From Bacteroidota bacterium (GTDB lineage Bacteria > Bacteroidota > Bacteroidia > Bacteroidales > SKPS01): a stretch of 64,000 nt of DNA. Shown in pieces: positions 40,945 to 58,540 of the stretch (position 1 is the first letter of the stretch; each line of letters starts with the position of its first letter). The position numbers and the translations under genes are program-made. The stretch covers positions 90,955-154,954 of the forward strand of contig JAKLII010000002.1 in assembly GCA_022709695.1 (NCBI GenBank), read 5' to 3'. The notes under the pieces are model-generated. The model was not told the DNA's origin, did no database searches, and saw nothing but the letters and a program-made list of their open reading frames with translations.

Positions 40945-40955
40945 AACAGTGACCT

Positions 40956-41381
40956 ATGGCAATCAAGACACGAAATAAGAGGGAAGTTTCGTTCAGCATG
41001 GCCTCCATGTCTGATCTGGTGTTTCTGCTGCTGATCTTTTTCATCCTGATATCCACCATGGTGAGTCCGAATGCCATTGATGTCAGCCTCCCCAGCAGCC
41101 AATCGAGGACGGTAAGTCCGAAAGGGCCGGTGGTTGCGGTGGATAAATTCAACAATTACTATTTTTCGAGCAATCCTGTTGACCTGAACACCTTGCAGAC
41201 CTTGCTGGGATCGGAACTGTTGAAATATTCCCCGGATGAACCGACCGGAATAGAGTTGCAGGCAGACAAAGAAGCTTCGGTACAAGCCATTGTAAATGTG
41301 TACAATCTTGTCAGCATCCTGAATACCGCAAACAACACCAAGCATAAAGTAATTCTCAAGACTGCTCCATCCCAGAAGTAA
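40956..41381 (+). CDS. exbD: ExbD/TolR biopolymer transport protein
   Basis: 141 aa. The N-terminal TM segment with the conserved Asp is MASMSDLVFLLLIFFIL. The periplasmic domain follows. Confidence 0.85.
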   Translation: MAIKTRNKREVSFSMASMSDLVFLLLIFFILISTMVSPNAIDVSLPSSQSRTVSPKGPVVAVDKFNNYYFSSNPVDLNTLQTLLGSELLKYSPDEPTGIELQADKEASVQAIVNVYNLVSILNTANNTKHKVILKTAPSQK

Positions 41382-41481
41382 AGGGGCAGAAAAGCAGATT
41401 TTGATGAAACTTTTCTATTTTAGAGGTGTATACCAAAATATATAAGACCACAGTAATCAGATTCCCAAATATGGCAGCATC

Positions 41482-42252
41482 ATGGACCGAGAGGCAATCA
41501 TAAGCAGGAACGACCGGATCAAAGGTATGATTGCAGCCATATTGGTGCTGTTGCTGGTATTTATGCTGAGTCTTTTCTTTGGGTTTCAATACCCGGATCC
41601 ACCGATTCCGGATGAGGGCGTGGAGATTGAGATGGGCGGAAGCGGCAGCAGCGGCGGGATTGAGGGGCAGAACACGTTGCCTGAAACGGAACCGGTCAGC
41701 CGACCCAATCCTGAACAAGGTGAGCGCACCTATGTAACGGATAACCGTCCTGATAACCCGCCTGCACCTGTAGCCTCACCCACGGTGAAGCTTACGCAGA
41801 CCGCTCCGGTTACACAGCCTGAAACGCCAAAACAAAAGGTTAACCCCAATGCCCTGTTTACCAAAAAGGGGACATCAGGATCCGGTGGCAGTGGAAGCAG
41901 CAGTGGAAGCGGGAAGGGCAGCGGAACCGGAACCAAGCCTGGTGACGGAACCGGAACGGGAAAAGGCAGCGGAACTGGTCCGAGTTTCAGCCTGACAGGC
42001 CGAACCCACAAGGAGTTGCCCCTACCCTCCTATAATTCAGACCGGCAGGGGAAAATCGTGATTGATGTAAATGTTGACCAGCAGGGCAATGTGGTTGATG
42101 CACAGTATAACTCGCGGTTATCTACCACTTCAGATCTTCAGTTAAAAGCCGCCGCCATTGAAGCAGCCAAAAGAAGCCGGTTTTCAGTGAATCTCGATGC
42201 TCCTGTTGTTCAAAGGGGTATGATTACCTATACCTTTATCAAACTGAATTAG
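41482..42252 (+). CDS. TonB-family energy transducer
   Basis: N-terminal TM segment (IAAILVLLLVFMLSLFF). A P-rich then G/S-rich linker (SGSGGSGSSSGSGKGSGTGTKPGDGTGTGKGSGTG). A C-terminal TonB fold (QGKIVIDVNVDQQGNVVDAQ...AAIEAAKRSRF). Confidence 0.75.
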   Translation: MDREAIISRNDRIKGMIAAILVLLLVFMLSLFFGFQYPDPPIPDEGVEIEMGGSGSSGGIEGQNTLPETEPVSRPNPEQGERTYVTDNRPDNPPAPVASPTVKLTQTAPVTQPETPKQKVNPNALFTKKGTSGSGGSGSSSGSGKGSGTGTKPGDGTGTGKGSGTGPSFSLTGRTHKELPLPSYNSDRQGKIVIDVNVDQQGNVVDAQYNSRLSTTSDLQLKAAAIEAAKRSRFSVNLDAPVVQRGMITYTFIKLN

Positions 42253-42382: not shown

Positions 42383-43678
42383 ATGAATTACGAAGAAACG
42401 CTGCAGTATTTATATGACCGGTTGCCCATGTTTCAACGCATCGGGGCAGCTGCCTATAAAGCGAATCTTGACAATACCCTTCGGTTGGTGGATTTTCTCG
42501 GTAATCCTCAGAAGAAATTACGATTCATCCATATTGCAGGCACCAATGGCAAAGGTTCCGTTTCGCATATGCTGGCAGCGATTCTGCAGTCGCAGGGGCT
42601 CCGGACCGGTCTGTTTACCTCTCCCCATCTGAAAGATTTCAGGGAACGTATCAAAGTTGACGGGAAGATGGTGCCCAGAAGCTGGGTAACCTGGTTTGTT
42701 CAGTATTTCAAAAAGGATTTCGAGCAGTTGCAACCCTCCTTTTTCGAAATGTCGTTCGGGATGGCGATGCGGTACTTCAAAGAACAGAACTGTGATATTG
42801 TGGTGCTTGAGACGGGAATGGGGGGAAGGCTGGATTCTACGAATATTGTGCATCCGGTGGTATCGGTGATCACGAACATCAGTTTTGATCACAGGGAGTT
42901 TCTGGGAGACTCCCTGGAAATGATTGCCGCAGAAAAAGCGGGCATTATCAAGGAGCACATACCGGTTGTAATTGGCAGGCATCATCCCGATACTGACGAA
43001 ATATTCAGCTACAAGGCAGAACTGGAAGAATCGCGTATCACCTATGCACAGGATGTATTCGAGGTTGTTCAGGCAGGTATGGCAGGTTCGGTACGTGGCA
43101 AGCTGATGCTGGATATTCACAGGATGGGGAGACCCTACCTGCGGGAGCTCAAATGCCCCTTAACCGGATCGTACCAGAAGGAGAATATCCTTACGGTTCT
43201 GGCAGCGGTTGAAGAGTTGATCGCAGCAGGGTATGATATCCGCAAAAACCATATTATCAAGGGAATCAATGATGTGATCAAGCTTACCGGTTTGATGGGG
43301 AGGTACCAGATTCTGGGATCCAATCCATTGAGGATATGTGATACAGCACACAACCCCGATGGGCTGAAAATGGTCATGGAACAGCTGAAGGGTGAAACAT
43401 ACAGGAAACTGCACTTTGTGCTGGGTGTGGTTTCTGACAAAGATCTCAAAGGGATCCTGAAACTTTTCCCACAGGATGCAGTCTACTATTTCTGCAAGGC
43501 CAACATACCGCGGGGACTGGATGCAGGCATCCTCCGTGACCAGGCAGCAGGCTACGGGCTTCGGGGGAATGTTTATGCCTCTGTCAATGAAGCGTATAAG
43601 GCAGCCTGCAGTGCAGCAGGAGCAGATGACCTTGTATTTACGGGAGGTTCAACGTTTACCGTTGCTGAAGTGTTGTAA
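42383..43678 (+). CDS. folC: Bifunctional folylpolyglutamate synthase / dihydrofolate synthase
   Basis: I set the start at ATG 42383 (MNYEETLQYLY); the ORF track opens at GTG 42320. It has the P-loop IHIAGTNGKGSV and the Mur-ligase blocks VLETGMGGRLDSTN and ISFDH. Confidence 0.9.
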   Translation: MNYEETLQYLYDRLPMFQRIGAAAYKANLDNTLRLVDFLGNPQKKLRFIHIAGTNGKGSVSHMLAAILQSQGLRTGLFTSPHLKDFRERIKVDGKMVPRSWVTWFVQYFKKDFEQLQPSFFEMSFGMAMRYFKEQNCDIVVLETGMGGRLDSTNIVHPVVSVITNISFDHREFLGDSLEMIAAEKAGIIKEHIPVVIGRHHPDTDEIFSYKAELEESRITYAQDVFEVVQAGMAGSVRGKLMLDIHRMGRPYLRELKCPLTGSYQKENILTVLAAVEELIAAGYDIRKNHIIKGINDVIKLTGLMGRYQILGSNPLRICDTAHNPDGLKMVMEQLKGETYRKLHFVLGVVSDKDLKGILKLFPQDAVYYFCKANIPRGLDAGILRDQAAGYGLRGNVYASVNEAYKAACSAAGADDLVFTGGSTFTVAEVL

Positions 43679-45020
43679 CCCTTTCCACTGCGATAAGGCG
43701 GTCATAAAGTTCAGAGGGTAATTTCTGATACACATAAACGGTATAAAAGTTTTCCGTTTCTGAATGGTCGCCTTCGGTCAGTACCGTTTCAAACCGTGTA
43801 CCGGCGGAGTCCAGCATCACATAATGGTAATTGTAATAGCCCTGTTTAAGATAGAGTGAAGCCTCATAGGAATTTCGTTCTTCACTGTAAACCAGCCTGG
43901 CTTCAGGTGTGAGTTGCCAGTTCGTAAAAGCACCGAGCAGGTACATATCACGATGGCCAAAGGATGACTGGAAAGGGAAGGTGAAATGTACCCAGGCATA
44001 ATCTTCCTCATTACCAGCGGTTGAATGGGCATCATCGTTCCGGATAATGAACTCACCGTTCAGGTCTTTTTCGGATTGATACACCTGAAAACCCCTTTTA
44101 AAATCGGGTTTGAGAAACACATGATGGAAGGCGGAATCCTGGGTGATAAAAGCGACGCGGGGAGTTACTTTCGAGAGTGTGCGAATATCGAAATAGCGGA
44201 ACTCATTGCCTCCGTTAAAGGTATTCACCTTTTCCCAGTTATAGGAGATTGTATTGCCGGTAACCAGACGAGGCTGCAGCCCCTCCACCCTATTATCAAG
44301 CCGCCCGTTCTGGGCAATAAAGATTTTCAGTTCCTGGTATGGGTTTTCGACAGGCCAGCTGCTTTTTACCAGATCCACATCCACTTCCTGTTTATACCCT
44401 GCCTCTTCTATATCAGATGATTTCCGTACCGATATTTTCAGGGATGCCCGGTTTTCGGTAACCATAAACCGACGGGTCAGAATCAACTGGTTTTGTTGGG
44501 CGGGGTCGTAAATTACAAGGAGATAATTTCCTGATTTACTGATTTTTACCTCTTCGTTGGGAATCAAAAGGGTATAATGCACATAGGCCTGCCGGGTAGC
44601 CCTTGAGAGAAGATACTGATTCAAAAAGCCTTCTGTATAGGGGGAGAGGTATTCGGATTGCAGGAGATCGGAGGGATTCCATGAGGCATCGCAATGGATG
44701 AGGGTATATCTGAACTGTCGGGGTAATCCGTTGAGCTCATCAAAAGAGATTTCGAGTTGCCCGGATTTATCCAGCTCCAGCAATGGCAGCGAAAACTCCA
44801 CTCCAGTGCGTTGCATCTTCACGGATGTAATGGCAGGTGTATAGGCATGGTCGAGGGTTGAAAACCGTACAGGATTGAACCATGAGAAACCACTGAGAGA
44901 GGAATAGGCAGGGGTTGTGAGGATTTTCCCGGTTGCATCCGCGCTTTGGGGTGTGCGGCATGAATACAGGAGCAGCACGGTTGCAAACAGAAAAATCAGG
45001 GATGAACAGGTTTTTTTCAT
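43656..45020 (-). CDS. Exported protein with a CBM48/early-set-like C-terminal domain (I recall this architecture annotated DUF5103 / T9SS plug-protein-like; unverified)
   Basis: 454 aa with a signal peptide and a possible lipobox (LLYSC). The C-terminal WVHFTFPF...MYLLGAFTNWQ...YEASLYLKQGYYNYHYV resembles AMPK-beta/CBM48 modules. The 3' end overlaps the folC 3' end by 23 nt (convergent genes). Confidence 0.45.
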   Translation of the reverse strand: MKKTCSSLIFLFATVLLLYSCRTPQSADATGKILTTPAYSSLSGFSWFNPVRFSTLDHAYTPAITSVKMQRTGVEFSLPLLELDKSGQLEISFDELNGLPRQFRYTLIHCDASWNPSDLLQSEYLSPYTEGFLNQYLLSRATRQAYVHYTLLIPNEEVKISKSGNYLLVIYDPAQQNQLILTRRFMVTENRASLKISVRKSSDIEEAGYKQEVDVDLVKSSWPVENPYQELKIFIAQNGRLDNRVEGLQPRLVTGNTISYNWEKVNTFNGGNEFRYFDIRTLSKVTPRVAFITQDSAFHHVFLKPDFKRGFQVYQSEKDLNGEFIIRNDDAHSTAGNEEDYAWVHFTFPFQSSFGHRDMYLLGAFTNWQLTPEARLVYSEERNSYEASLYLKQGYYNYHYVMLDSAGTRFETVLTEGDHSETENFYTVYVYQKLPSELYDRLIAVERVTTLQQR

Positions 45021-45152: not shown

Positions 45153-46433
45153 ATGAGCAATTTTATGCTTATTGTTTTAGTGCTGATAACGGGAGTACTG
45201 ACCGCCGGCACACAAACTTTTGATCAATATTTTCACCGTAAGACCCTGCGGTATGACTACATCCATTCAGGCACCCGGAACAAGGAACAGATTAAACCCG
45301 GAAAACTGATTTCAGAGCCCTACTGGGGCGGATCCCTGACCCAACTGATTGATACATTTGGTTTTGGCAGATACCATTTTAATCTGAGGGATGCAAAATC
45401 AGGTACGCTGATTTATTCCAGAGGGTTCAGCACCCTGTTTGTGGAGTGGCAGGACACGGAGGAGGCTAAAACAAAACGGAAAGGATTCAGGGAATCCATT
45501 GTGATGCCCTTTCCGAAGGATGATGCGGTTCTGGAAATTTACCGGAGAGACAAGAAGAATGTACTCCATCTGATTTTCAGTGACAAGATACACCCTGGCA
45601 AGGAAAAAATCATGACCCGGGGAGTCCCTTCCTGGGAAAAGCGGGATATTGCCGTGCATGGTGATCCGGCAGAGAAACTTGACATTGTATTTCTGGCAGA
45701 GGGATACACTGCAGATGATATGCACCTTTTCTGGGATGATTGCCGGAAATTTGCAGGGTATTTAACAGGGGCAGCACCGTATGGTGAGGTCAGTGAAAGT
45801 ATCAATTTCAGGGGGGTCGGCGTTATTTCAGACGAATCGGGAGTGTCTTTGCCGGGTGAAAAGATCTTCAGAAAAACAGGGCTGGGAGCATCATTTAGCA
45901 CCTTTGGATCAGAGCGTTACCTGATGGCAGAGGACTTTCAGCGTGTGAGGGATGCCGCAGGGCTGGTACCCTATGATCAGATTTTTATTATTGTAAATTC
46001 TGACAAATACGGGGGTGGTGGCATATATAATTTTTACGCTACGGGGACCCGTGGCAACAAGGAGGCTGGGTTCCTCCTGATCCATGAGTTTGGGCATTCC
46101 TTTGCAGGCCTGGCAGATGAATATTACACCTCGGAGGTTGCGGTGGATGCTTTTTACGATCTGCAGACTGAGCCCTGGGAGCCAAATATCACCACACTGA
46201 TTGATTTTGAACGAAAATGGAAAGGGATGTTGTTACCCGGCACACCGGTCCCCACACCTGCGATACCTGCCAATGAACAGACTATCGGGGTATTCGAGGG
46301 TGCGGGGTATTCTGCCAGGGGCATTTATCGTCCCTATCAGGAGTGCACGATGAAATCGGTACGTTATGATGCCTTTTGCCCGGTATGCCGACGGGCGATT
46401 CTTCAGATGATTCGTTTTTACAGTACACCCTGA
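45153..46433 (+). CDS. M64-family (IgA-peptidase-like) zinc metallopeptidase
   Basis: 426 aa with a signal peptide. N-terminal M64 domain (LRYDYIHSG). Zincin site LIHEFGHSFAGLADEY. Confidence 0.8.
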   Translation: MSNFMLIVLVLITGVLTAGTQTFDQYFHRKTLRYDYIHSGTRNKEQIKPGKLISEPYWGGSLTQLIDTFGFGRYHFNLRDAKSGTLIYSRGFSTLFVEWQDTEEAKTKRKGFRESIVMPFPKDDAVLEIYRRDKKNVLHLIFSDKIHPGKEKIMTRGVPSWEKRDIAVHGDPAEKLDIVFLAEGYTADDMHLFWDDCRKFAGYLTGAAPYGEVSESINFRGVGVISDESGVSLPGEKIFRKTGLGASFSTFGSERYLMAEDFQRVRDAAGLVPYDQIFIIVNSDKYGGGGIYNFYATGTRGNKEAGFLLIHEFGHSFAGLADEYYTSEVAVDAFYDLQTEPWEPNITTLIDFERKWKGMLLPGTPVPTPAIPANEQTIGVFEGAGYSARGIYRPYQECTMKSVRYDAFCPVCRRAILQMIRFYSTP

Positions 46434-47438: not shown

Positions 47439-48515
47439 ATGGGTAACCAATGTATTCTGGCCATCAATCCCGGCTCTACCTCCACAAAAATTGCGGTGTA
47501 TGAAGGGAACCGGCAGATATTTCTGAAAAACATCCAGCACAGTTCCGAGGAGATCGGGAGTTTCGAGAGGATCACTGATCAGTATGAATTCCGGAAGAAT
47601 ATTATCCTGCAGGAATTGAGGAATGCAGGTATCACCATTGAGAATCTGCGGGTGATTGTTGGGCGGGGAGGTTTGTTAAAACCCATTCCTTCCGGTGTTT
47701 ACGAGGTTAATGACCTGATGAAGGAGGATCTGCGCACAGGGGTACTAGGGCAGCATGCGAGCAACCTCGGAGGTCTTATTGCCAGTGATATCGCCAGGAG
47801 CCTCCCATCCGCCAAGGCCTATATTGCCGATCCGGTTGTGGTGGATGAACTGGAGCCTGTAGCAAGGATATCAGGGCACCCTCTGTTTGAACGGATCAGT
47901 ATCTTCCATGCATTAAACCAGAAAGCGATTGCACGTGCCCATGCCAAACTGCAGAACGTTCCGCTCGAAGATCTTAATCTGATTGTGGCGCATTTGGGGG
48001 GTGGGGTTAGTGTGGGAGCACACCGGAAAGGGCGGGTGATTGATGTGAATCAGGCACTTGACGGAGAGGGTCCGTTTTCACCCGAGCGTTCAGGTACACT
48101 TCCTGCAGGTGCACTTGCCAAAGCCTGTTTCAGCGGAGACTACACCCCGGATGATATCAGGAAGATGATTACCGGAAAAGGGGGCTTTGTGGCTTATCTG
48201 GGAACCAACAATGCAATTGACGTTGAACAGCGGGCTGAAGCAGGAGATGAAAAGGCTACACTGATTCAGGAGGCTTTCGCCTATCAGGTTTCCAAGGAGA
48301 TCGGGGCTATGTCGACGGTTCTAAAGGGTGAAGTTGATGCCATTCTCCTTACCGGAGGAGTAGCTTACGGCAAACCTGTGGTTGCGATGATCCGTGAGCG
48401 GGTTGAGCATCTGGCACCGGTATTTGTGTATCCCGGTGAGGATGAAATGAAAGCATTGGCGGGTAACGGGCTGATGATCCTCAATAACGAAATATCGGCG
48501 CGGGAGTACAGGTAG
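47439..48515 (+). CDS. buk: Butyrate kinase
   Basis: ILAINPGSTSTKIAVYEG, VGRGGLLKP, IVAHLGGGVSVGAH and PERSGTLPAG are ASKHA-fold Buk signatures. Confidence 0.9.
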   Translation: MGNQCILAINPGSTSTKIAVYEGNRQIFLKNIQHSSEEIGSFERITDQYEFRKNIILQELRNAGITIENLRVIVGRGGLLKPIPSGVYEVNDLMKEDLRTGVLGQHASNLGGLIASDIARSLPSAKAYIADPVVVDELEPVARISGHPLFERISIFHALNQKAIARAHAKLQNVPLEDLNLIVAHLGGGVSVGAHRKGRVIDVNQALDGEGPFSPERSGTLPAGALAKACFSGDYTPDDIRKMITGKGGFVAYLGTNNAIDVEQRAEAGDEKATLIQEAFAYQVSKEIGAMSTVLKGEVDAILLTGGVAYGKPVVAMIRERVEHLAPVFVYPGEDEMKALAGNGLMILNNEISAREYR

Positions 48516-48635
48516 ACATCTTCCCTGAAGGAGCAGAAGACAGAATCAGGGTAATTTTTACGGTTATTTACAAGCTCACCCCTTATTTTAACGAACTATT
48601 AACAGCTGTAAGGAATTGAAATTCGCATTTATAGG

Positions 48636-48643
48636 TAATTTTG
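48636..48643 (+). promoter_or_regulatory. Candidate -7 box (TAATTTTG) for the His/Cys-rich protein / TonB-dependent receptor / HMA operon
   Basis: Exact TAnnTTTG match 26 nt upstream of ATG 48669. No clear -33 element. Confidence 0.3.
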
Positions 48644-48668
48644 CAGAGCAAAAGTATGCAATAACCGG

Positions 48669-49139
48669 ATGAAGAAGATACTGGCCATACTGATCGCATT
48701 AAACATCACTGTAAGCACCAGCGGCTTTATGGTGTTTGTGCATCATTGCCGTTTACATCAGGAGACCATGTCATCCCTGTTTGTGAACTTCAATGATGAT
48801 GTGCATCACGAATGTGGTCACAATCACCATCCGGCAGCACCTCATTCAGGTTCATGCTGCAGCCCGGAACCTTCTGTTTCATCTGAAAAACTATCAGGCA
48901 ATTGCTGCACCGAATATGAGTTCCTGCTGCGTTTCTCACCCGATACAGAACCCGCCAGAAAAGCTGCCCTCAAATTTAACACACCTGATACCAGGATAGC
49001 TTATTGCCACTATGTGATTGAGGATAAAGCACCGGACCAGCCTGAAGTTTTTACCGGCAGGTTTGATGACCCCTGCCCTGCACCAGCAGGGCGTCCACTC
49101 CTGATCACCCTTAGTCAATTAAAAATTTACGGTTGCTGA
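48669..49139 (+). CDS. Small exported His/Cys-rich protein (I recall RefSeq calling this type 'HYC_CC_PP family'; unverified)
   Basis: 156 aa. N-terminal signal/anchor (ILAILIALNITVSTSG). VHHC, HHECGHNHHP, two vicinal Cys pairs (GSCCSP, GNCCTE), and a C-terminal PCPAPAGRP. It sits directly upstream of a TonB-dependent receptor. Confidence 0.5.
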   Translation: MKKILAILIALNITVSTSGFMVFVHHCRLHQETMSSLFVNFNDDVHHECGHNHHPAAPHSGSCCSPEPSVSSEKLSGNCCTEYEFLLRFSPDTEPARKAALKFNTPDTRIAYCHYVIEDKAPDQPEVFTGRFDDPCPAPAGRPLLITLSQLKIYGC

Positions 49140-49161
49140 TACACCCTGATTTCTGATAGTA

Positions 49162-49169
49162 TAGTTTTG
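49162..49169 (+). promoter_or_regulatory. Possible internal -7 box (TAGTTTTG) embedded in an AT-rich palindrome upstream of the receptor gene
   Basis: TAnnTTTG match. It overlaps the near-perfect palindrome AGTTTTGAT-T-ATCAAAACT (49163-49181). This could equally be an operator or a weak hairpin. Confidence 0.2.
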
Positions 49170-49263
49170 ATTATCAAAACTCTGCATCATCAGAATGAGG
49201 TATCGGAAGCATGTTCCGTGCCTCGGTCAATCAGTATCAAATACACCATAAATTTTTAATTCC

Positions 49264-51486
49264 ATGAAAAAGTACAGCATAATAATCTCTATCCTGTTGT
49301 TGATTCTCCCGATACGGATATGGGCCGGTGAACTCACCGGGTTTGTATATGAACCAGGGGAGAATGGCAACAAAACACCGCTCCCGAATGTGCATGTCTT
49401 CTGGGCAGGCACCTCTGTGGGAACACACACAAACGATGAAGGGAGGTTTCACCTTGACCGGGTTAAAGGGAAGGACATTCTGGTGGTCAGTTATGTGGGT
49501 TTTGAAAAGGACTCCATCAGGGTCAATCCTGATGAAAGAGAACTTAGCATCGGGCTCAGCCGCAATGTGATTCTTAAAAAACTTGTGATAACCGCCCGGG
49601 AGTCTGCCACATATATCAGTAAATTCGATCCTATCATTACCCAGAACATCACCGGTGCTGAGCTGCACAAAGCAGCCTGCTGCAACCTGGGCGAGAGTTT
49701 CGAAACCAATGCGTCGGTGGATGTATCGTATGGCGATGCGATCTCCGGTGCGAAGAAAATTGAGATGCTCGGGCTGACAGGCATCTACAGTCAGCTGATG
49801 ATTGAGAACATTCCGGATTATCAGGGATTTGGCCGTTCGTTCGGGTTGAGTTACATACCGGGTCACTGGCTGGAGTCGATTTCGGTTTCCAAAGGTGCAT
49901 CATCCGTGGTTTCGGGGAATGAATCGATCACCGGCCAGATCAGTGCAGATTTTAAAAAGCCTGACGGGAAAGAGGTGTTTTACCTCAATCTCTACGGCAA
50001 TTCACACGGGCACATGGAGGGTAATTCCAATGCAGCCTGGAAGATCAATGACCGTCTCAGCACCATGTTTCTTGGCTACGGCGGGTATAATAACCTGAGG
50101 ATCGACCATAACAATGACGGCTTCATGGATGAGCCGCTGACAAAACGGTATCACCTGATGAATCGGTGGAAGTATGCATCTTCTGATCATCAGCGGACGA
50201 TACTGCAGGCCGGGATTAATTTTCTTAATGAGGAGCGCCTCGGTGGAGAAATGGACTACAAAGTTGTTGATCCCGGAGAACTGAAATATGGTTTCACCGT
50301 AAATACCCTGAGGACCGGCGGGTTTTTCAAAGGGTGTTACATTTTTCGCGGAAGGGCTATGACCAGTATATCAACCATGAATAATTATGCCCTGCACAGG
50401 CAGGAATCGGTATTTGGGTTCAATACCCATACCGTGGAACAAAACAGCCTCAACAGCCGGGTGAGTTTCGACACCTACCTGTTCAACAGCAACCATCTGA
50501 TCCAGACCGGGGTATCATACCAACTGCAGGATTACGACGAAAAGATGAATGATTCGCTGATGGGTAAGAAGGAGCTTGTTTATGGAGCATTTGGCCAGTA
50601 TACTTTTTCTCACCTGAAGACCTTTACCCTTTTGGCTGGTTTCAGGGCTGATTACAACAGCCTTTATAGCGTGCAGCTCACCCCCAGGCTTCATATCCGT
50701 TACCAGCCCACGGAGCATACCACGATAAGGGTTTCGGGAGGCAAGGGGTACCGGAGTGTGCACATGTATGCTGAGAATTTATTCCTGCTGGCAAGTTCGA
50801 GGAGGATCGTATTTGAGAATGAGGTCATCCCTGAAGTAGCATGGAATTACGGAATCCATCTCACACAGGATCTGCACCTCGCCGGAAGAAAAGCCGTCTT
50901 GAATGCGGAGGTTTTCAGGACTCAATTTACTGATCAGATGGTGATAGATCTGGATCGCGACTTTGAGCACATCTACGTGTACCAGCTTGACGGGCGTTCA
51001 TTTGCCAACAATTTACAGGTTGATTTCACCTTTGAGCCCATTAAGAGGCTGGATGTCCTGCTGGCCATAAGGGTAAGTGATGCACGGGCCACCATGGACG
51101 GAGAGCTGGTACGGCTTCCGTTTTCTAAGCGCTATAAAGGACTTGCAAACTTCTCCTACAAAACTCCGAGCACCAAATGGCAGTTCGACTACACAACACA
51201 GTTCAACGGGCCGTCAAGGCTGCCTGAAAACCACAATCTGCCAGTTCAATATCATACAGCACAGGAATCACCTGCCTATGTGATTATGAACGCACAGGTG
51301 ACAAAGTACTTCAGACACTGGAATGTGTATATGGGTGGAGAAAATTTGACTAATTTTGTGCAACATCATCCGATCATTGCAGCCGATGATCCATTCGGGA
51401 AGTATTTTGATGCTTCTCAGGTCTGGGGCCCGGTTATCGGAAGAAAAATTTATGCAGGATTCAGATATTATATAAAACAACTTTAA
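49264..51486 (+). CDS. TonB-dependent outer-membrane receptor with an N-terminal carboxypeptidase-regulatory-like domain
   Basis: 740 aa with a signal peptide. CarbopepD_reg-like start (LTGFVYEPGENGNKTPLPNVHVFWAGTSVGTHTNDEGRFHL). Plug-region motif AELHKAACCNLGESFETNASVDVSYGDAISGAKKIEMLGL. A long barrel ends in a basic/aromatic strand (AGFRYYIKQL). Confidence 0.8.
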   Translation: MKKYSIIISILLLILPIRIWAGELTGFVYEPGENGNKTPLPNVHVFWAGTSVGTHTNDEGRFHLDRVKGKDILVVSYVGFEKDSIRVNPDERELSIGLSRNVILKKLVITARESATYISKFDPIITQNITGAELHKAACCNLGESFETNASVDVSYGDAISGAKKIEMLGLTGIYSQLMIENIPDYQGFGRSFGLSYIPGHWLESISVSKGASSVVSGNESITGQISADFKKPDGKEVFYLNLYGNSHGHMEGNSNAAWKINDRLSTMFLGYGGYNNLRIDHNNDGFMDEPLTKRYHLMNRWKYASSDHQRTILQAGINFLNEERLGGEMDYKVVDPGELKYGFTVNTLRTGGFFKGCYIFRGRAMTSISTMNNYALHRQESVFGFNTHTVEQNSLNSRVSFDTYLFNSNHLIQTGVSYQLQDYDEKMNDSLMGKKELVYGAFGQYTFSHLKTFTLLAGFRADYNSLYSVQLTPRLHIRYQPTEHTTIRVSGGKGYRSVHMYAENLFLLASSRRIVFENEVIPEVAWNYGIHLTQDLHLAGRKAVLNAEVFRTQFTDQMVIDLDRDFEHIYVYQLDGRSFANNLQVDFTFEPIKRLDVLLAIRVSDARATMDGELVRLPFSKRYKGLANFSYKTPSTKWQFDYTTQFNGPSRLPENHNLPVQYHTAQESPAYVIMNAQVTKYFRHWNVYMGGENLTNFVQHHPIIAADDPFGKYFDASQVWGPVIGRKIYAGFRYYIKQL

Positions 51487-51511
51487 TCACTAAACACGAA
51501 AAAGAATCATT

Positions 51512-52111
51512 ATGAAAAAAAGCGCAATTGTACTGACGTTGATTATGGGGCTGTTTTTATCAGCTTTTCAGCTGGAAGCAGCCAAGCCGGATCTGAAGAC
51601 GGTGAAATTTTCGGTTAATATGCACTGTGCCTCCTGTCAGCAGAAGATTATGGAAAACCTGCCTTTTGAGAAGGGGGTAAAGGAGGTTAAGGCTGATCTG
51701 GCTACAAAAATTGTGGAGGTGACCTACGATGCCAAAAAAACAGATCCTGAAAAGATCAAGGCAGCGATACAGAAACTAGGATACGAGGTAAAAACTCCTG
51801 AAGAAGCTTCTGCCAATGCCAATCAGCCAGAGCATAAATGCACCGGACAAAAGGAGGAAGGTCATAAATGCCAGAAAGAGGGTGCTGATGCCAAGCAGGA
51901 ACACAAATGCACGGGGCAGAAGGATGCCAAGACGGGCGATGCTGAACACAAATGCACAGGGCAGAAGGATGATGCCAAGACGGGCGATGCTGAACACAAA
52001 TGCACAGGGCAGAAAGATGACAAATCAGGCAGCGCGGAGCATAAATGTACAGGTGAAAAAAAGGCTGACGGTACCACAGAGCCTCACAAGTGTAACCACG
52101 AGAAGAAGTGA
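51512..52111 (+). CDS. Periplasmic heavy-metal-associated (HMA) domain protein with a C-terminal His-Lys-Cys repeat tail
   Basis: 199 aa with a signal peptide (FQLEAAK). The HMA ferredoxin-like fold carries MHCASCQQKI (CxxC). The tail then has 7 HKC motifs: PEHKCTGQKEEGHKCQKEG...EHKCTGQKD (repeated)...PHKCNHEKK. Confidence 0.75.
   Translation: MKKSAIVLTLIMGLFLSAFQLEAAKPDLKTVKFSVNMHCASCQQKIMENLPFEKGVKEVKADLATKIVEVTYDAKKTDPEKIKAAIQKLGYEVKTPEEASANANQPEHKCTGQKEEGHKCQKEGADAKQEHKCTGQKDAKTGDAEHKCTGQKDDAKTGDAEHKCTGQKDDKSGSAEHKCTGEKKADGTTEPHKCNHEKK
51899..52036 (+). repeat. Three tandem in-frame units (45, 48 and 45 bp) encoding EHKCTGQKD(D)(A)K(T/S)G(D/S)A
   Basis: The units are 51899-51943, 51944-51991 and 51992-52036. 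The first two are almost identical at the nucleotide level. Degenerate copies lie on both sides (about 51830-52108). Confidence 0.85.
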
Positions 52112-52135
52112 CAGAACTTCAGATGTATGCAAAAG

Positions 52136-52169
52136 AAAACCGACAGCCAGATGGTTGCCGGTTTTTTTT
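52136..52169. terminator. Bidirectional rho-independent terminator between convergent genes
   Basis: AAAACCGACAGCC (52136-52148) pairs with GGTTGCCGGTTTT (52153-52165), with one mismatch and one G-U pair, across a 4-nt loop. It is followed by a T8 run and preceded by an A-run. Confidence 0.65.
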
Positions 52170-52854
52170 ATTTCAAAAGGTAACTCAGACGTATCTGACT
52201 GATCAGGGACATGACTGCACGTGTCCCATTTGAACTTCCTGAATAGGTGCTTCCACTCTGGGAAGAATTATTCCATGATTCCTTCCAGATTTCATATCTG
52301 GCCGACGACTCAAAACCAAGGGTAAATCTTTTGCCCACTGGAAATCCAAAACCAATGTATGGATCAATACCAAACACATCATCCTTGTTGCTGTTTTTGT
52401 AGTTGTCGGTGGGGTTCTGATATTCACTCTCCGACCGGACGTGTGTAATCACTTTGGAAAAGTCGACCCCATAGCTCAGGATAAAGTTTTTCCGATGGGT
52501 AATCCCGCCAATTCCCAGCATAGCTGCCGTCCAGTTCCTGTTTTCCTCAAAAGCATAGGTACTCTCTCTGGTGTCAGTTTCAAGGTGAAGGGCATGGAGG
52601 CCAAGTCTTGCATACATATTCTTGTACTGCAGCATGTATTGGAGTCCGGGGACCGGCCTGGTGGTTCTTTGCGGAAAATACATGATATCCAGCCATGGAT
52701 AATACCACCCATTCCAGTTATCATCGCTGAGGGTGAGTAATGAAAATGAGAGGGTGTGTGACCAGGGGGATTTTACAGTTTCTTCCGTTTGGGCAACACC
52801 ATGCAAACACATAGTACAGATTACCATCATCAGAGCCATTGTCAGTTTTTTCAT
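52168..52854 (-). CDS. Small outer-membrane beta-barrel-like protein, unknown function
   Basis: 228 aa with a signal peptide (MCLHGVAQT). Alternating aromatic/Gly strands (LSYGVDFSK, DPYIGFGFPVGKRFTLGFESSARYEIW). No family recognised. Confidence 0.4.
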   Translation of the reverse strand: MKKLTMALMMVICTMCLHGVAQTEETVKSPWSHTLSFSLLTLSDDNWNGWYYPWLDIMYFPQRTTRPVPGLQYMLQYKNMYARLGLHALHLETDTRESTYAFEENRNWTAAMLGIGGITHRKNFILSYGVDFSKVITHVRSESEYQNPTDNYKNSNKDDVFGIDPYIGFGFPVGKRFTLGFESSARYEIWKESWNNSSQSGSTYSGSSNGTRAVMSLISQIRLSYLLK

Positions 52855-53074
52855 ACTGTAATTTTATTGAAACGTTAAATACCTTATTCTCTTGATGAAA
52901 ACACTCATTTCAGTTCCATATTTTGTGGAATAGCTGTTACTTTTGTACCGGCTAACCTTTCGTATGATGAAAAGATGCGGGCGAAAGTTGCGCCCGGGGG
53001 AAATTCACCGGTTTACCTGAAGCACGCAACCCATCCTGATTACGATTCATCATTAACCTTGAAACCCGCAGTCG

Positions 53075-53680
53075 GTGGAAGAGCAGGACAGTATCCGTGA
53101 GATGATAGAGGGTTGCCTCCGTAAAGACCGACGGGCGCAAAAACGATTATACGACCAGTATGCTTCAAAGTTGTTTGCCGTATGTTTATCATATTCCTTT
53201 GATTACGAGGAAGCCCAGGATAACCTGCACGATGGTTTTATCAAGATTCTGATGTATATGAACCAATATAAGGGAGAAGGGTCTTTTGAAGGGTGGATGC
53301 GCCGGATCATGGTGAACACCTCGCTGGAACGATACCGGCGGAGGCATAAGATGAAACTGATTGCAGAAGAGATACGTGCTGAATCCTCCCTTTCAGTTGA
53401 GCACATTCTGGAGGAGATTTCTGCTGCTGAGCTTATGGACGCTGTTCAGGAACTGAGCCCACAGTACAGGATGGTATTTTTGTTATATGCCGTGGAAGGT
53501 TACAACCACAAAGAGATAGGTAAGATGCTGGAGATCTCGGAAGGAACTTCAAAGTCGAATTATTCGCGGGCCCGTTCGGTTTTGCAGGAAAGACTGAAAA
53601 ACTACGGTACCCCGGCAGAGGCAAGGGGCAGGTTCAGGACGATCAAACCGGCAGCAGAGGATGAGATCGGAGTAAAATAA
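53075..53680 (+). CDS. ECF-type RNA polymerase sigma-70 factor
   Basis: Region 2 (RLYDQYASKLFAVCLSYSFDYEEAQDNLHDGFIKI...FEGWMRRIMVNTSLERYRR) and region 4 (FLLYAVEGYNHKEIGKMLEISEGTSKSNYSRARSVLQ). The ORF opens at GTG 53075, and ATG 53102 (MIEGCLRKD) is an alternative start. Confidence 0.85.
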   Translation: MEEQDSIREMIEGCLRKDRRAQKRLYDQYASKLFAVCLSYSFDYEEAQDNLHDGFIKILMYMNQYKGEGSFEGWMRRIMVNTSLERYRRRHKMKLIAEEIRAESSLSVEHILEEISAAELMDAVQELSPQYRMVFLLYAVEGYNHKEIGKMLEISEGTSKSNYSRARSVLQERLKNYGTPAEARGRFRTIKPAAEDEIGVK

Positions 53681-53686
53681 AAGGTT

Positions 53687-54991
53687 ATGGAACGACGATC
53701 AGACCGATTGGAAGAGCGCATAAAAAAAGCCATGCTGGCAGGGGAGGCCACTCCTCCGGCAGGAGCATGGGCCAGGATCGAGGAGTCGCTGCTGGCAGTA
53801 TCACGGCACCACAGGGTTGTGATGTGGCGCAGGATTGCCGGTGTTGCAGCCGTTTCTGCAGCCCTGATCACAGGATATCTGATACGGAATGAGTGGGGGG
53901 ATGTCAGGCAGGAAAAGTATGACCTTGTTGCCCATCAGACTCCCCCTCAGAAACATCCCTTATCCATACAAAAAGGGTACATGAAATCAAAAGTGGCATC
54001 TGCAGAATCGGAGAAAACCTTAAGGAGAAATGGGGACGCTGAAGGTTCTGTTCAGGCAGGGAATTACAAATCCCGGACAGGCCCGTCATCCATATCAAAT
54101 GAAGCTGTTACCACAAACCCCGAAATACCGCTCACCTATATCACTATTCAAACATCTGATGAGACATACCCTCCTGACCAGCTGGCGGTAACCATTCCCT
54201 GGATTCCGGTTTTTCTGATTCCTGACCTGAAACCGCAGATTGCCCATGATTTTCCGGCAGCACCGGAAAAAATGAGAAGACGATGGCAGATGACAGGATA
54301 TGCAGGCAGGACGTTTGCCGGTTATTATGCCTCCGGTGACGGTGGTATCAGCAACTCTTCCTTCCGGAATGATATGATAGAGAACTCCGGAGAGCAGATC
54401 ATCAGACCCAAAGGTTCTATCGGGCTTGGTGTGGGCTTTCGTATTACTGACCGGATCGGTTTGCAGACCGGTGCTGTGTACAACCAGTTCAGTACCACCC
54501 TCTCGTCAGGGGAGCAGGAAATTACCGTTTTAAGTAATTACAGACCGGCCTCCAATATTTTTGGCGAATTATCCTACAGTTCCGCTCTGAAGGACGAACT
54601 GGTCACCTATCCCATTCTCGAGGTACCATCAGGGGAATTGGTACAGCACTTCAGTTGGCTGGAGGTTCCACTTACTGGTTCATACACCCTGGTCAAAGGG
54701 CCCGTTGGTATTTCCGTCAAAGCCGGTTTTGGGGGAAACATCCTCACTGACAATCGGTTAATTCGCCAGACCGGAAATAATGAGGCATACATCGGAACCA
54801 CATTGGGATTAAAAAGGATGTATGTAAGTGGACTCATTGGAATTGATCTGTACTATGAAGCCGGAAAATCATGGGCTTTAAGCTTTAATCCCCTCTACAG
54901 GCAATCACTGCAGCCAATCAGCAGGGGGCAGGAATCAAAACCTTTCCTGCTCAACCTGGGTATTTATTCAGGTATCAGTTACAGGTTCTGA
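53687..54991 (+). CDS. Membrane-anchored protein with a C-terminal outer-membrane beta-barrel-like domain (anti-sigma-like by position only)
   Basis: 434 aa. A ~48-aa charged N-terminus, one TM segment (IAGVAAVSAALITGYLI), a ~140-aa linker, then an OMP_b-brl-type region (WLEVPLTGSYTLVKGPVGISVKAGFGGN...LNLGIYSGISYRF) with a terminal Phe. It starts 7 nt after the sigma gene. Confidence 0.5.
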   Translation: MERRSDRLEERIKKAMLAGEATPPAGAWARIEESLLAVSRHHRVVMWRRIAGVAAVSAALITGYLIRNEWGDVRQEKYDLVAHQTPPQKHPLSIQKGYMKSKVASAESEKTLRRNGDAEGSVQAGNYKSRTGPSSISNEAVTTNPEIPLTYITIQTSDETYPPDQLAVTIPWIPVFLIPDLKPQIAHDFPAAPEKMRRRWQMTGYAGRTFAGYYASGDGGISNSSFRNDMIENSGEQIIRPKGSIGLGVGFRITDRIGLQTGAVYNQFSTTLSSGEQEITVLSNYRPASNIFGELSYSSALKDELVTYPILEVPSGELVQHFSWLEVPLTGSYTLVKGPVGISVKAGFGGNILTDNRLIRQTGNNEAYIGTTLGLKRMYVSGLIGIDLYYEAGKSWALSFNPLYRQSLQPISRGQESKPFLLNLGIYSGISYRF

Positions 54992-55693: not shown

Positions 55694-57070
55694 CTATTCC
55701 TTATCCCTGAAAAGTTCATTTTTGCTGACTTTCTTTACTTTATCACCGTTTTTCAGGTCTTTTGTAACAGCACTGTAAGGGGCTACCACAATTTCCTCAC
55801 CTTCTTTCAACCCGGATACAACCCTGATGTATTCCGAATCCTGAATACCGGTTTCCACTTCTCTCATTTTTACGGTTCCGGCTTCATATACAAAAACATA
55901 CTGCTTCAATTCCTTTAGTTCGGCCTTTTTTTGCCGCTGCTTTTCTTCCTCGCTCTGCTCTTCGGCAGGCTGATCCTTGAAGTTCTTTTTCAGTGCGGCA
56001 ATCTTTGAACCGCTGGTATCGGCACGTGCTGTAACTGATTCGATGGGAATCGTAAGTACATTATCAGCGTATGCAGTGCGGATATCAACGCTGGCCGACA
56101 TACCGGGCCGGAAGGGTGACTGCCCCGGGTCATCGGATACCAGATCCGTATAGGAGGCCTGCAGTAGTCTGATTTTCACTTCGAAATTGGTAACCTGATC
56201 GGTATTTAACTGCGTTGAGCTGGCTGAGTTGGCGATACGGGTTACCACACCCGAGAACTTCCTGTCGGGGTAAGCATCCACTTCCACTTCTGCCGTATCA
56301 TTAAGTTTAACCCGGATGATATCATTTTCACTCACTTCTATACTCACTTCCATATTTGAAAGATCGGCAATACGCATGATTTCTGTTCCTTCGAACTGTG
56401 AGGTCCCTACAACCCTCTCCCCTTTTTTCTTCGAGAGACGTGAAACTGTGCCATCCATCGGGGCAAACAAGGTGGTTTTGGTAAGGTTAACACGGGCTTC
56501 CCTGAGGGATGCTTCAGCGCTTTTGACTCCGAATCTGGCGGCTTCAATACTTTGCTTTGCTGCCTCCAGCTCTGCAGTGGCAATATCGAGCGCTACTGAT
56601 GCTGCCTCAAATTCAGCTTCTGAAACGGCTCCCTTCTTGTGCAGGGTGTTGATTCTGTTGTACTCGCTTTTGCTCTTCAGCAGCTGGGCTTCCATCTGCA
56701 CCTGCCTGGTGCGGGCATTGGCCAGGTTGGCCCTTTGGGTATTTACGCCGGCTTCCATCTGTTCCAGAAATGAAAGGTAGTTCTCAGGATTGATCCTGGC
56801 GAGCATCTGCCCCTTCTTCACTTTATCCCCTTCCTTTACATACAACTCAACGATTTCCCCCGATACATCAGGGGTAATCAGCAATTCCACCTCCGGCTGA
56901 ATTTTGCCACTGGCAGAAACGATTTCAATGATGGATCGTTTTTCGGCTTTCTCAGTGGACACTTTAACGGATTTGTCCTTAGCGATCCAACCCTGCTTTT
57001 TGGCTACCACCAATAGAATCAGAATTACCACTGCTGCGGCCACCAATACATATACAGTACGCTTTTTCAT
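55694..57070 (-). CDS. Efflux periplasmic adaptor (HlyD/MFP, MacA-like) protein
   Basis: N-terminal TM segment. Lipoyl-like hairpins (ITPDVSGEIVELYVKEGDKVKKGQMLARI; LFAPMDGTVS). A long coiled-coil hairpin. A beta-barrel domain and a membrane-proximal domain. Confidence 0.8.
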   Translation of the reverse strand: MKKRTVYVLVAAAVVILILLVVAKKQGWIAKDKSVKVSTEKAEKRSIIEIVSASGKIQPEVELLITPDVSGEIVELYVKEGDKVKKGQMLARINPENYLSFLEQMEAGVNTQRANLANARTRQVQMEAQLLKSKSEYNRINTLHKKGAVSEAEFEAASVALDIATAELEAAKQSIEAARFGVKSAEASLREARVNLTKTTLFAPMDGTVSRLSKKKGERVVGTSQFEGTEIMRIADLSNMEVSIEVSENDIIRVKLNDTAEVEVDAYPDRKFSGVVTRIANSASSTQLNTDQVTNFEVKIRLLQASYTDLVSDDPGQSPFRPGMSASVDIRTAYADNVLTIPIESVTARADTSGSKIAALKKNFKDQPAEEQSEEEKQRQKKAELKELKQYVFVYEAGTVKMREVETGIQDSEYIRVVSGLKEGEEIVVAPYSAVTKDLKNGDKVKKVSKNELFRDKE

Positions 57071-57109
57071 GATCGGAGATTTGTTCGGTTTTGTGAAAAC
57101 GGAAAGGGG

Positions 57110-58540
57110 TTATAAGGTGATTTCCTTCCCCATATAAAAATCGAGGAGACTGGTTTTAAAGATATATTCATAGCGGGCTCCGAGCATTTGTGCTTCTGCA
57201 GCCATCAGGCGATTTTTCGCTTCGTTAAATTCGAGGGAACCCACCATCCCCACATTGAACCGTTCTTCTGCATATAAAAACGATTCTTTGAGTGCTTCCC
57301 ATGACTTTTTTGCAGCCAGGTAGGTTTTCAGGGCTGCTGCAGCATCTGCATGAGCCTGCTGAATTTCCTGAAACAGCTGCTGTTGCTGCAGTTCGCTGTT
57401 AAAGCGTGCATTAGCAAGACTGAGTTCGGCGTTTTTGATGGAGGTCTGATTCTGTAATCCGTTGAATAAGGGGACGGTAAGGTAAACTGCCACCGACTGG
57501 TTAAAGTTGTCATTGAGCTGTTTGCCAAATGGTCTGAGGGCTTCCTGCACATCCAGAACCGGAGCATAAACCGTATCAAAGCCTGAAGTGAACATTCCGT
57601 TGGGTTCAAACCCCGCGATGGAATAGGTATAATCCTTTCTGGCCCCCGAGAAGCCTGTTCCCATGGATGCTGTGAGGTGCAACGAAGGCCACATGCCACC
57701 CCTGGCTGCCTTTAACCCCAGGTCGGCCATTTTTACCTGCATTTCAGCACTTTGAATCTGTGGCAGGTGGTCATTGGCATATTTATATATATCCACCGGG
57801 GACAGCAGCAAGGTTTCGGTGGGTTCCTTACCGGTGCTTTCAGGTTTCATCACCAGAAATTCAGTGCCCGGATCGAGATTAAGCAGCTGGCTTAATATAA
57901 GATACGACATCGCCAGCTGGTTTTCGGCACGTACCACGTTTGCCTCTTCAGAGGCCAGCTGGGCTTCGAGGGTGAGCAGTTCGCCCCGGGGGCGCATGCC
58001 GGATTCAACCAACTGCTCTATTCTGGCAACCTGCTGTTGCGTGATCGTGCGCTGTCCTTCCGCTACCGCAAGCTGCTCGGTGTTATAAAGTACCTGAAGG
58101 TAGGCAGTTGCCACATTCAGCATGATATCGTTGGTGGCTTTATCGCAATCGAGCCGCTTGGCAGTAAGTCCGGCATGCTGTTGTGCAGCGATATTCAGCA
58201 GCCTGAACCCGTTAAAAATGGTGACTCCCGATTGGACGTAGAAGTTATTGGTTTGAACCCTTTCCGAGGCAAACTGGTTGGTATAGAGGTCCACAGTCTG
58301 CCCCCAGTTATACCCGTGCGATGCATTGGCATTGAGGGTAGGCAACATGGCAGCCCTGGCCTGCTGCATGCTGTTTTTCTGCATCTCCACCCCCAGTCTT
58401 GCTACCTTGAGGCCGATATTATTCCCGATTGCGAGGTCGATGCATGCAGAAAGGTCATATACAGGTGTTTGCCCGTATAACAGCACCGGAATAAAAACAC
58501 CCAACCCCAGCAGCCATTTTTTCATCTTTTTGGATTTCAT
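57110..58540 (-). CDS. TolC-family outer-membrane efflux channel
   Basis: 476 aa with a signal peptide. It shows the two-repeat TolC pattern (DLSACIDLAIGNNIGLKVARL...; LSPVDIYKYANDHLPQIQSAEMQVKMADLGLKAARG...). The start may be the second ATG (MKKWLLG). Confidence 0.8.
   Translation of the reverse strand: MKSKKMKKWLLGLGVFIPVLLYGQTPVYDLSACIDLAIGNNIGLKVARLGVEMQKNSMQQARAAMLPTLNANASHGYNWGQTVDLYTNQFASERVQTNNFYVQSGVTIFNGFRLLNIAAQQHAGLTAKRLDCDKATNDIMLNVATAYLQVLYNTEQLAVAEGQRTITQQQVARIEQLVESGMRPRGELLTLEAQLASEEANVVRAENQLAMSYLILSQLLNLDPGTEFLVMKPESTGKEPTETLLLSPVDIYKYANDHLPQIQSAEMQVKMADLGLKAARGGMWPSLHLTASMGTGFSGARKDYTYSIAGFEPNGMFTSGFDTVYAPVLDVQEALRPFGKQLNDNFNQSVAVYLTVPLFNGLQNQTSIKNAELSLANARFNSELQQQQLFQEIQQAHADAAAALKTYLAAKKSWEALKESFLYAEERFNVGMVGSLEFNEAKNRLMAAEAQMLGARYEYIFKTSLLDFYMGKEITL

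Follow-up and report, generated by a model that had tools for sequence, protein, structure and literature searches.

How soft metals such as copper and zinc cross the bacterial outer membrane is poorly known. TonB-dependent import of copper exists and few copper-specific outer-membrane transporters are known; the receptor types described so far (OprC, MbnT, CrtA and ZnuD) are a handful, almost all of them from Proteobacteria, and CrtA was defined as a new copper receptor family in 2026 (PMC12914433). Our analysis concerns a locus of three genes in a 64,000-nucleotide stretch of DNA (the window) from a Bacteroidota bacterium of the Bacteroidales lineage SKPS01 (GenBank assembly GCA_022709695.1, contig JAKLII010000002.1, positions 90,955 to 154,954 of the forward strand). 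On its plus strand lie, in this order, the genes for a small exported Cys/His-rich protein (156 amino acids; 48669-49139), a TonB-dependent receptor (740 amino acids; 49264-51486) and a periplasmic protein with a heavy-metal-associated (HMA) domain (199 amino acids; 51512-52111), all three taken from the listing of open reading frames (ORFs) and the last two also from Pfam. Each of the three proteins carries thiol motifs: a CC pair in the receptor plug; HxC and two CC pairs in the small protein; and CxxC together with either LPxCC or seven HKC motifs in the HMA protein. Our analysis suggests that the trio is a conserved envelope system of Bacteroidota and Ignavibacteria that may move a thiophilic metal across the outer membrane into periplasmic custody, a reading to which we assign a probability of roughly 55%. 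The soft-metal interpretation is supported as far as genomes allow; that the metal travels inwards, and which metal it is, we infer.

The closest described systems each share part of this arrangement. Like the window receptor in our reading, OprC/NosA of Pseudomonas is a TonB-dependent receptor for putatively unchelated soft metal with a Cys ligand in its plug, and the folds are similar (Foldseek TM-score about 0.57), although at the level of sequence the similarity is that of the superfamily only. OprC binds copper via CxxxM-HxM; CxxxM is missing from the window receptor, whose single HxM (residues 297-299) is not conserved in the family, so that an OprC-type copper site was rejected. What the window family has instead is a vicinal CC, invariant and placed earlier in the plug, together with a CarboxypepD_reg extension, and OprC has neither an HMA nor a HYC_CC_PP partner. 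The copper receptor of a Bizionia paper is an OprC-like protein and does not belong to this family. CrtA resembles the window receptor in being a receptor for copper supply, in operons that sometimes include the chaperones PCuAC and ScoI and a dedicated regulator, but it is proteobacterial, imports chelated Cu(II) and depends on essential His and carboxylate-binding residues, and the cited sections report no Cys motif or HMA partner for it (PMC12914433). CrtA is not among the closest sequence matches of the window receptor. ZnuD of Neisseria, a TonB-dependent receptor for free divalent metal, is among the best fold matches (E 2.5e-20), but it has His/Asp-rich extracellular loops and lacks both a CC motif in the plug and an HMA partner, and the similarity is generic to the superfamily. 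The pairing of a periplasmic CxxC-bearing HMA protein with CC-bearing membrane proteins recalls MerP and MerT (also MerF and the MerA carboxy-terminus). In the mer system, metal is passed by thiol ligand exchange. Here, however, the CC-bearing partner is an outer-membrane TonB-dependent receptor and not an inner-membrane helix bundle, and the trio is a widespread core feature rather than a mobile resistance operon. The HMA protein scores far below the NCBIfam thresholds for MerP (TIGR02052; 30.5 against 92.55) and MerTP (45.8 against 180), as it does for CopZ (NF033795; 45 against 91), and neither MerA, MerT/C/F nor MerR was found among the window genes or the conserved neighbours, so that the locus is not a mer operon.

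The evidence that the three genes belong together comes from other genomes. The receptor family comprises 5684 proteins at E < 1e-20, with about 47% identity phylum-wide, and a scan with its invariant peptides, one genome per species, gave at least 596 confirmed receptor loci. Eighty loci fetched from among these and three contigs of a close relative, 83 comparison loci to which the window is additional, were analysed by our own ORF calling and iterated hidden Markov model searches. A homologue of the small protein lies at most 1.8 kb upstream of the receptor in 74 of the 83 loci; a separate HMA protein adjoins the receptor in 61, and in five more an HMA domain is fused to it. With S for the small gene, T for the receptor and H for the HMA gene, the architectures include S-T-H (30 loci), S-T (18), T-H (12), S-H-T (4) and S-HT (3), besides others. 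The sources are Bacteroidales, Prolixibacteraceae, Saccharicrinis, Dyadobacter, Runella, Chitinophaga, Saprospiraceae, Flavobacteriales, Odoribacter, Rikenella and Ignavibacterium; the trio is kept in Bacteroidales, Marinilabiliales-type lineages, Cytophagales, Chitinophagales, Saprospirales, Flavobacteriales and Ignavibacteria, and the flanking genes all differ. All-against-all clustering revealed no other gene family widely common to the loci. The RefSeq labels of the trio in Parabacteroides distasonis are hypothetical protein, TonB-dependent receptor and heavy-metal-associated domain-containing protein. An earlier note on this DNA, made from the sequence alone, had mentioned similar three-gene neighbourhoods in other Bacteroidota and had named beforehand the conservation of the neighbourhood as a check that could refute its proposal; such neighbourhoods are real and far above chance, and the outcome of the check speaks strongly for linked genes.

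In the receptor, the families CarbopepD_reg_2, Plug (32.1 bits against a cut-off of 23.9) and TonB_dep_Rec_b-barrel (53.7 bits against 27) are all above their Pfam cut-offs, and the barrel places it in the receptor superfamily with 22-strand barrels. It consists of a signal peptide, a CarboxypepD_reg-like extension (residues ~25-100), a TonB-box-like LKKLVITAR (104-112; family consensus LxEVVI), an atypical plug that reads LLGL and EN where IRG and DG would be usual, and a 22-strand-type barrel. The AlphaFold 2 (AF2) model has a predicted local distance difference test score (pLDDT) of about 88 in the barrel, about 80 in the N-terminal extension and 32-56 in the plug (101-200), which includes the invariant motif described below. 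Foldseek matches it to generic receptors (Cir, ZnuD, BtuB, PqqU, FrpB and OprC) at TM-scores of about 0.55 and E-values of about 1e-21 to 1e-18, with no special affinity, and a profile search against solved structures gave remote receptor matches only, none of which aligns the CC region. SusC/RagA (TIGR04056) reaches 41 bits against a cut-off of 368, matching the N-terminal extension and plug only, and there is no SusD-like neighbour, so the receptor does not belong to that group.

The CC pair of the receptor, which the earlier note had pointed out and which is C139-C140, is accompanied by one further Cys in the whole protein. The CC-bearing plug peptide is ELHKAACCNLGESFETN, the motif KAACCNLGESFETN is present, and alignments delimit a plug motif, E133-V154, that reads ELHKAACCNLGESFETNASVDV (49660..49725, plus strand, with the codons of the CC pair at 49678-49683). 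This is the most conserved stretch of the family (ELxKAACCNLxESFETNASVDV), and both Cys residues, with most of the motif, are invariant in the 15 sequences of alignment A1 and the 82 of alignment A6; the motif recurs in the HMA-fused receptors. When the Cir alignment of the profile search is taken as an anchor and extended manually to the sequences of Cir and BtuB, the pair probably lies directly ahead of the first plug helix, some 30 residues past LKKLVITAR. The plug region just past the TonB box is usually considered to be the part pulled out by TonB.

The third gene of the trio encodes an HMA protein (Pfam HMA, PF00403, 68.1 bits against 24.8, residues 33-92) with a signal-peptide-like N-terminus (~1-24) and the metal-site loop H38-C39-A-S-C42, of which C39-x-x-C42 is invariant in alignment A4. 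A low-complexity tail holds exactly seven HKC motifs (residues 108-194; nucleotides 51833-52093), so that the signal peptide, the MHCASC and the seven HKC motifs are all as first described. A 48-bp tandem repeat underlies part of this tail, which is common to the relatives L086, L087 and L001 (numbers with the prefix L denote loci) with varying copy number, L086 and L001 having more repeats than the window (A4); the EHKCTGQK repeats of the window clade arose partly through recent tandem duplication. Most partner HMA proteins have 110-123 amino acids, a signal peptide, CxxC and a C-terminal AYxKLPxCCxK...H, in place of which the window clade has the EHKCTGQK repeats. Two subtypes can be distinguished: subtype 1 (37 proteins) combines [AG][IV]-C-x-M-C with LPxCC, and subtype 2 (22 proteins), to which the window's MHCASC belongs, has [MIL]-[DH]-C-x-x-C without LPxCC; a single, two-domain protein mixes both. 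The split largely follows the receptor tree, and the small proteins paired with subtype 2 are richer in His (median 9 versus 5). An Asp right before CxxC is a ligand of the Zn/Cd/Pb site in ZntA-type domains, and Cys/Met sites are typical of Cu(I); by this analogy, subtype 1 would be Cu(I)-like and subtype 2 more divalent-like. Two HMA-like domains within one protein were seen at L025 (5883-6422) and L032 (8222-8758), where [IT/IH]CENC is followed by GNCDMC and a C-terminal LPDCC(K/R)YR, both subtypes thus occurring in one chain.

Strong evidence that the HMA protein and the receptor act together comes from the fused receptors of Chitinophaga and Saprospiraceae-type lineages (L052, L063, L067, L073 and L075), which have 847-881 amino acids and no separate HMA gene at their loci. 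The order of parts, confirmed by Pfam, is signal peptide, HMA domain with CxxC, LPxCCHYRE, a linker, the CarboxypepD_reg extension, the TonB-box region, a plug with ELFKAACCNLSESFETN and the barrel. In TonB-dependent receptors the N-terminal extension lies in the periplasm, and an HMA domain fused to it would therefore stand at the receptor's periplasmic mouth. A hand-off of metal in the periplasm, as the earlier note had suggested, requires just this position, and the idea gains support from the fusions.

The small protein has 9 Cys and 10 His in its 156 residues, among them the VHHC, HHECGHNHHP, GSCCSP and GNCCTE picked out at first reading, all of which were found. It is laid out as a signal-peptide-like helix, a beta-hairpin ending in HHC27, and CC pairs at 63-64 and 79-80, the remainder being mostly disordered; the AF2 model (pLDDT 51) has a helix at 2-17, strands at 20-27 and 32-39, and pLDDT < 50 elsewhere. 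G19, C27, C64, C79 and C80 are conserved (alignment A5), and the conserved S/T-x-G ahead of the hairpin fits a signal-peptidase site. The family is divergent (mean column identity 16%) and large, at least 1334 cluster representatives matching it at E <= 1e-3; its constants are a Gly that closes the N-terminal hydrophobic segment, H-x-C, two CC pairs and, usually, PPP. The HYC_CC_PP label that the earlier note had given for this protein type stands in part: HYC_CC_PP (NF047658) is the sole NCBIfam match of the window protein, and 39 of 58 counterparts beside the same receptor elsewhere match it (best E 2.1e-16), but the window protein itself stays below the cut-off (19.5 bits against 28, E 1e-3, residues 2-68). 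The precomputed Pfam label is DUF8199 (PF26622), a weak one. In the window protein as in the family, an N-terminal hydrophobic segment ends in H-x-C and is followed by two CC pairs, and HHC27 and both CC pairs of the window protein align with the conserved columns; it differs from HYC_CC_PP in matching over its N-terminal half only, in reading PCPAPAG at the PPP column and in being unusually rich in His. By continuity with its counterparts, and with its own score sub-threshold, the small protein is probably a divergent member of HYC_CC_PP/DUF8199.

How the parts might work together can be sketched as follows. The receptor, energised by TonB (ExbB/ExbD genes lie 7 kb upstream), would import the metal, and its plug CC pair would act as a metal ligand in the part of the plug thought to be pulled out by TonB. 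The periplasmic HMA protein could then receive the metal on its CxxC through ligand exchange, its Cys/His tail adding capacity, with the exported HYC_CC_PP protein as a further thiol-rich partner, acceptor or donor. Delivery may end in the periplasm or go through an unlinked importer. A more specific version, conceivable although we doubt it, has the metal, bound to the invariant CC in the TonB-proximal and force-labile part of the plug, carried bodily into the periplasm as TonB unfolds the segment, stripped there through ligand exchange onto the CxxC/CC of a free or tethered HMA module and then passed to HYC_CC_PP; it would come in two flavours, Cu(I)-like and Zn(II)-like, with a dedicated regulator at TTAACA-N5-TTAACA. 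To our knowledge, such metal-carrying by a plug CC has not been seen in any characterised TonB-dependent transporter; if this version is true, the trio would form a cysteine bucket brigade through the outer membrane.

The neighbours of the trio in other lineages bear on the choice of metal. In Dyadobacter, the loci include a CopA-type P1B ATPase (with CPC, YN and MxxSS), a 69-residue CopZ-like protein, a lipoprotein with HMBD and a His/Met-rich outer-membrane protein. Other neighbours are an ArsR-type regulator with CxC (L073), a double-HMBD protein (L075), YHS proteins with FCCPGC (L021 and L057), a DUF3347 protein (L082), cytoplasmic HMA proteins near the trio (L007 and L008), TlpA-like thioredoxins adjoining it in five loci and an OEP efflux gene next to the Ignavibacterium locus. 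Eleven Cytophagales loci (L036, L038, L041, L048, L049, L053, L054, L056, L061, L072 and L078) have, in or beside the trio, an AraC-family regulator of about 190 amino acids with an N-terminal HMA-like IKNMVCDRC module that Pfam misses; in nine loci the gene directly follows that of the receptor, ahead of the HMA gene, and in the two Runella loci it lies upstream, and these proteins are possibly a new class of metal-sensing AraC regulator. The metal-related neighbours point to the handling of soft metals, mostly copper, and do not fix the direction of flow. For lineages in which [AG][IV]CxMC and LPxCC occur beside CopA, CopZ and HMBD genes, this points to Cu(I). In the window, [MIL][DH]CxxC resembles the DCxxC of ZntA-type domains and is paired with His-enriched partners, so that by analogy copper is no likelier there than Zn(II) or Ni/Co. 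We also note that the Dyadobacter cluster ends in an exported protein of 460-500 amino acids with a His/Met-rich N-terminus and no Pfam family (L049 9528-10928, with homologues in L036, L056, L061 and L078).

Several other explanations of the trio have to be considered. Its adjacency could in principle be chance or local synteny with no joint function, as the closest relatives share the entire 20-kb region and their synteny says nothing about linkage; this has a negligible probability and is already refuted by the neighbourhood analysis, since the trio is conserved across orders while all flanking genes change, its order permutes (S-T-H, S-H-T, S-HT) while the set remains together, HMA-receptor fusions exist, and the HMA subtype co-varies with the receptor phylogeny. 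It is unlikely, in our judgement, that the system serves to buffer or detoxify the periplasm, with the HMA and HYC_CC_PP proteins sequestering excess Cu, Ag, Cd, Hg or Zn and the receptor co-regulated for other reasons or feeding efflux. The Dyadobacter-type trio, interleaved as it is with the CopA-type ATPase, the CopZ-like protein, the HMBD lipoprotein, the His/Met-rich outer-membrane protein and the CxxC-bearing AraC regulator, would suit such a role, as would the HMBD, YHS and DUF3347 neighbours, the OEP gene by the Ignavibacterium locus, a repeat-expanded HKC tail that resembles a metal sponge, and the fact that the top NCBIfam similarities of the HMA protein are MerP and MerTP. TonB-dependent receptors, however, are known solely as importers, and an HMA domain fused to an import gate is hard to square with pure sequestration; moreover, only a minority of lineages have resistance-type neighbours, the core standing without them in most loci and in the window too, and MerA, MerT and MerR are all absent.

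The thiol modules might instead form a switch, in which a metal-loaded HMA protein bridges the plug CC and locks the receptor when the periplasm is replete, the substrate being a metallophore chelate or something else. Consistent with this are the fusion of HMA at the place where other receptors bear signalling domains, the alignment-based position of the CC in the TonB-proximal part of the plug, and the lack of a conserved OprC-like extracellular Cys/Met/His site in the receptor; CrtA, moreover, shows that a copper receptor can import chelates and not free ions (PMC12914433). We consider such a switch quite improbable, as no conserved genes for metallophore biosynthesis or for periplasmic binding-protein/ATP-binding cassette (ABC) systems lie near the trio loci, the small protein, with its two further CC pairs, is left unexplained, and the idea is purely inferential. 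Very improbable is a metal-free thiol-disulfide relay, in which the cycling of CxxC and CC would bring in or process a substrate that contains sulfur or is redox-active, or would let the receptor sense redox state. Vicinal disulfides and CxxC are classic redox elements, the TlpA-like thioredoxin genes lie divergently upstream in their five loci, and the plug is atypical in its replaced IRG and DG motifs (A1, A6), but the partner is a bona fide HMA protein (68 bits) with metal-site loop residues (M/I-D/H-C-x-x-C or C-x-M-C), His-rich tails are present, metal-sensor regulators and metal-handling genes recur nearby, and the thioredoxin neighbours are limited to one clade.

The reading of the trio as a route for thiophilic metal into the periplasm has points against it as well. 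In Cytophagales the trio stands among genes usually read as copper resistance, together with the metal-sensor-like activator family, which would also fit detoxification. It is found in likely anaerobes (the window, with ptb-buk genes, Parabacteroides, Odoribacter and Rikenella) that may have little use for copper, which argues against copper as the universal substrate. Some 10-20% of the loci have no detectable HMA or small gene nearby, and the clustering found no conserved inner-membrane transporter beside the trio, hence the two possible ends of delivery considered above. Where the CC pair sits, and how accessible it is, was read from a hand alignment to Cir and BtuB, in a plug that AF2 models at a pLDDT of no more than 32-56. 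Finally, literature searches found no published study of HYC_CC_PP, DUF8199 or the trio, in agreement with the earlier note, whose author was not aware of a functional study either.

The trio is one unit, with a single -7-box promoter, a phased TTAACA-N5-TTAACA site upstream and a terminator at its end. The -7 box TAATTTTG (48636-48643, plus strand; Bacteroidota-type consensus TAnnTTTG) was read from the sequence and is kept in L086, L087 and L001 (alignment A2). The gaps within the trio are 124 bp between the small gene and the receptor gene and 25 bp between the receptor and HMA genes. The terminator (~52132-52169) is intrinsic and bidirectional, common to the trio and a convergent gene, and folds into a stem of 16 pairs with one interior mismatch, an A-rich stretch on one side and a U-run on the other (-18.7 kcal/mol, z -5.4). 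The earlier account of three same-strand genes with short gaps, a -7 box before and a strong terminator after them was reproduced in all its coordinates.

Upstream of the promoter lies a direct repeat with an 11-bp period and the consensus tTTAACaannTaTTAACA; the window copy, TTAACG-N5-TTAACA (48588..48604, plus strand), starts 47 bp before the -7 box. Ahead of the small gene, an exact TAAC-N7-TAAC occurs both in the window and at 11 of the 59 other loci (L001, L008, L016, L024, L025, L027, L029, L032, L055, L079 and L081), as compared with a mean of 0.26 loci and a maximum of 3 in shuffles, and with one in 252 upstream regions of other long ORFs. Only two spacings between the repeat and the -7 box occur, 37 bp and 46-48 bp, one helical turn apart, and 13 of the 15 intergenic occurrences in the fetched loci (~1.4 Mb) are at the trio promoter. 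Response regulators of the OmpR/PhoB type typically go with an 11-bp period, and the Bacillus PhoP box has the same form. TTAACA-N5-TTAACA is a candidate transcription-factor site, possibly for an OmpR/PhoB-type response regulator; a CheY query found no receiver-domain protein in the window.

The spacer that separates the small gene from the receptor gene (49140-49263) is structured as a whole (-33.5 kcal/mol, z -4.6), with two hairpins at 49147..49235 on the plus strand, and 30 of 51 loci have spacers with z < -2, with no common sequence. The first hairpin holds the palindrome 49163-49181 at its tip (-10.7 kcal/mol, z -4.3). The earlier note had named its surroundings as a place to look for Fur, Zur or CsoR-like operators; the palindrome is no conserved operator of that kind: the stem is kept through wobble and compensatory changes in L086 and L087, the closest relatives, and is absent from L001 and more distant loci, and no shared palindrome was found upstream of or between the trio genes in 60 loci. 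A scan of 48300-53200 gave no Rfam match at E <= 1, in line with the earlier remark that no riboswitch was seen at the locus.

Among the other genes of the window, the convergent gene that shares the terminator (52168-52854, minus strand, 228 amino acids, from the ORF listing) was rejected as a member of the system, having no match to any family and homologues in the closest relatives only; its tie to the operon is as weak as first judged. ExbB (MotA_ExbB), ExbD and an unassigned gene of 268 residues, possibly TonB, lie on the same strand about 7 kb upstream of the trio (40228-42249) in an arrangement that is syntenic in close relatives, and this set is likely the energy source for the receptor. 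Downstream of the trio are genes for an extracytoplasmic function (ECF) sigma factor (53075-53680) and for an anti-sigma-like protein that includes an outer-membrane barrel domain (53687-54991), as also at L088 (9815-11617); a sigma factor 48% identical follows the Parabacteroides distasonis trio, and the pair, absent from the other 80 loci, was set aside as a candidate regulator of the system. Genes for a membrane-fusion protein of the YknX/MacA type and for an outer-membrane efflux protein (OEP) lie on the minus strand at 55694-58525, and MacA/YknX-type fusion proteins occur within 6 kb of the trio in seven loci of several lineages, possibly by chance. Between the ExbB/ExbD genes and the trio are a type IX secretion system (T9SS) plug protein gene (43656-45020) and an M64 peptidase gene (45153-46433), and two tandem T9SS cargo proteins with Omp28 and Por_Secre_tail domains are encoded on the minus strand at 26767-31067. 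Two long ORFs (642 and 489 amino acids) with no Pfam match occupy 23277-26688, where G+C is raised (0.517) and AT skew is strong, and the GC skew changes sign near 27 kb, where no DnaA gene was found.

New here are the direct repeat phased to the promoter, the two HMA subtypes, the structured spacer and the palindrome as a clade-specific hairpin. HMA domains are classically regarded as cytoplasmic; in this locus an import gate is paired with a periplasmic HMA chaperone. The proposed system would give a function to the named but uncharacterised HYC_CC_PP and DUF8199, and it offers testable handles in the promoter element, in the HMA-receptor fusions, in the triple vicinal-Cys theme and in the co-evolution of the two HMA subtypes, with Parabacteroides distasonis, Dyadobacter and Chitinophaga as cultivable carriers. 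Bacteroidota dominate gut, soil and marine particle communities, and the trio is apparently a widespread, Bacteroidota-wide answer to the passage of soft metals across the outer membrane.

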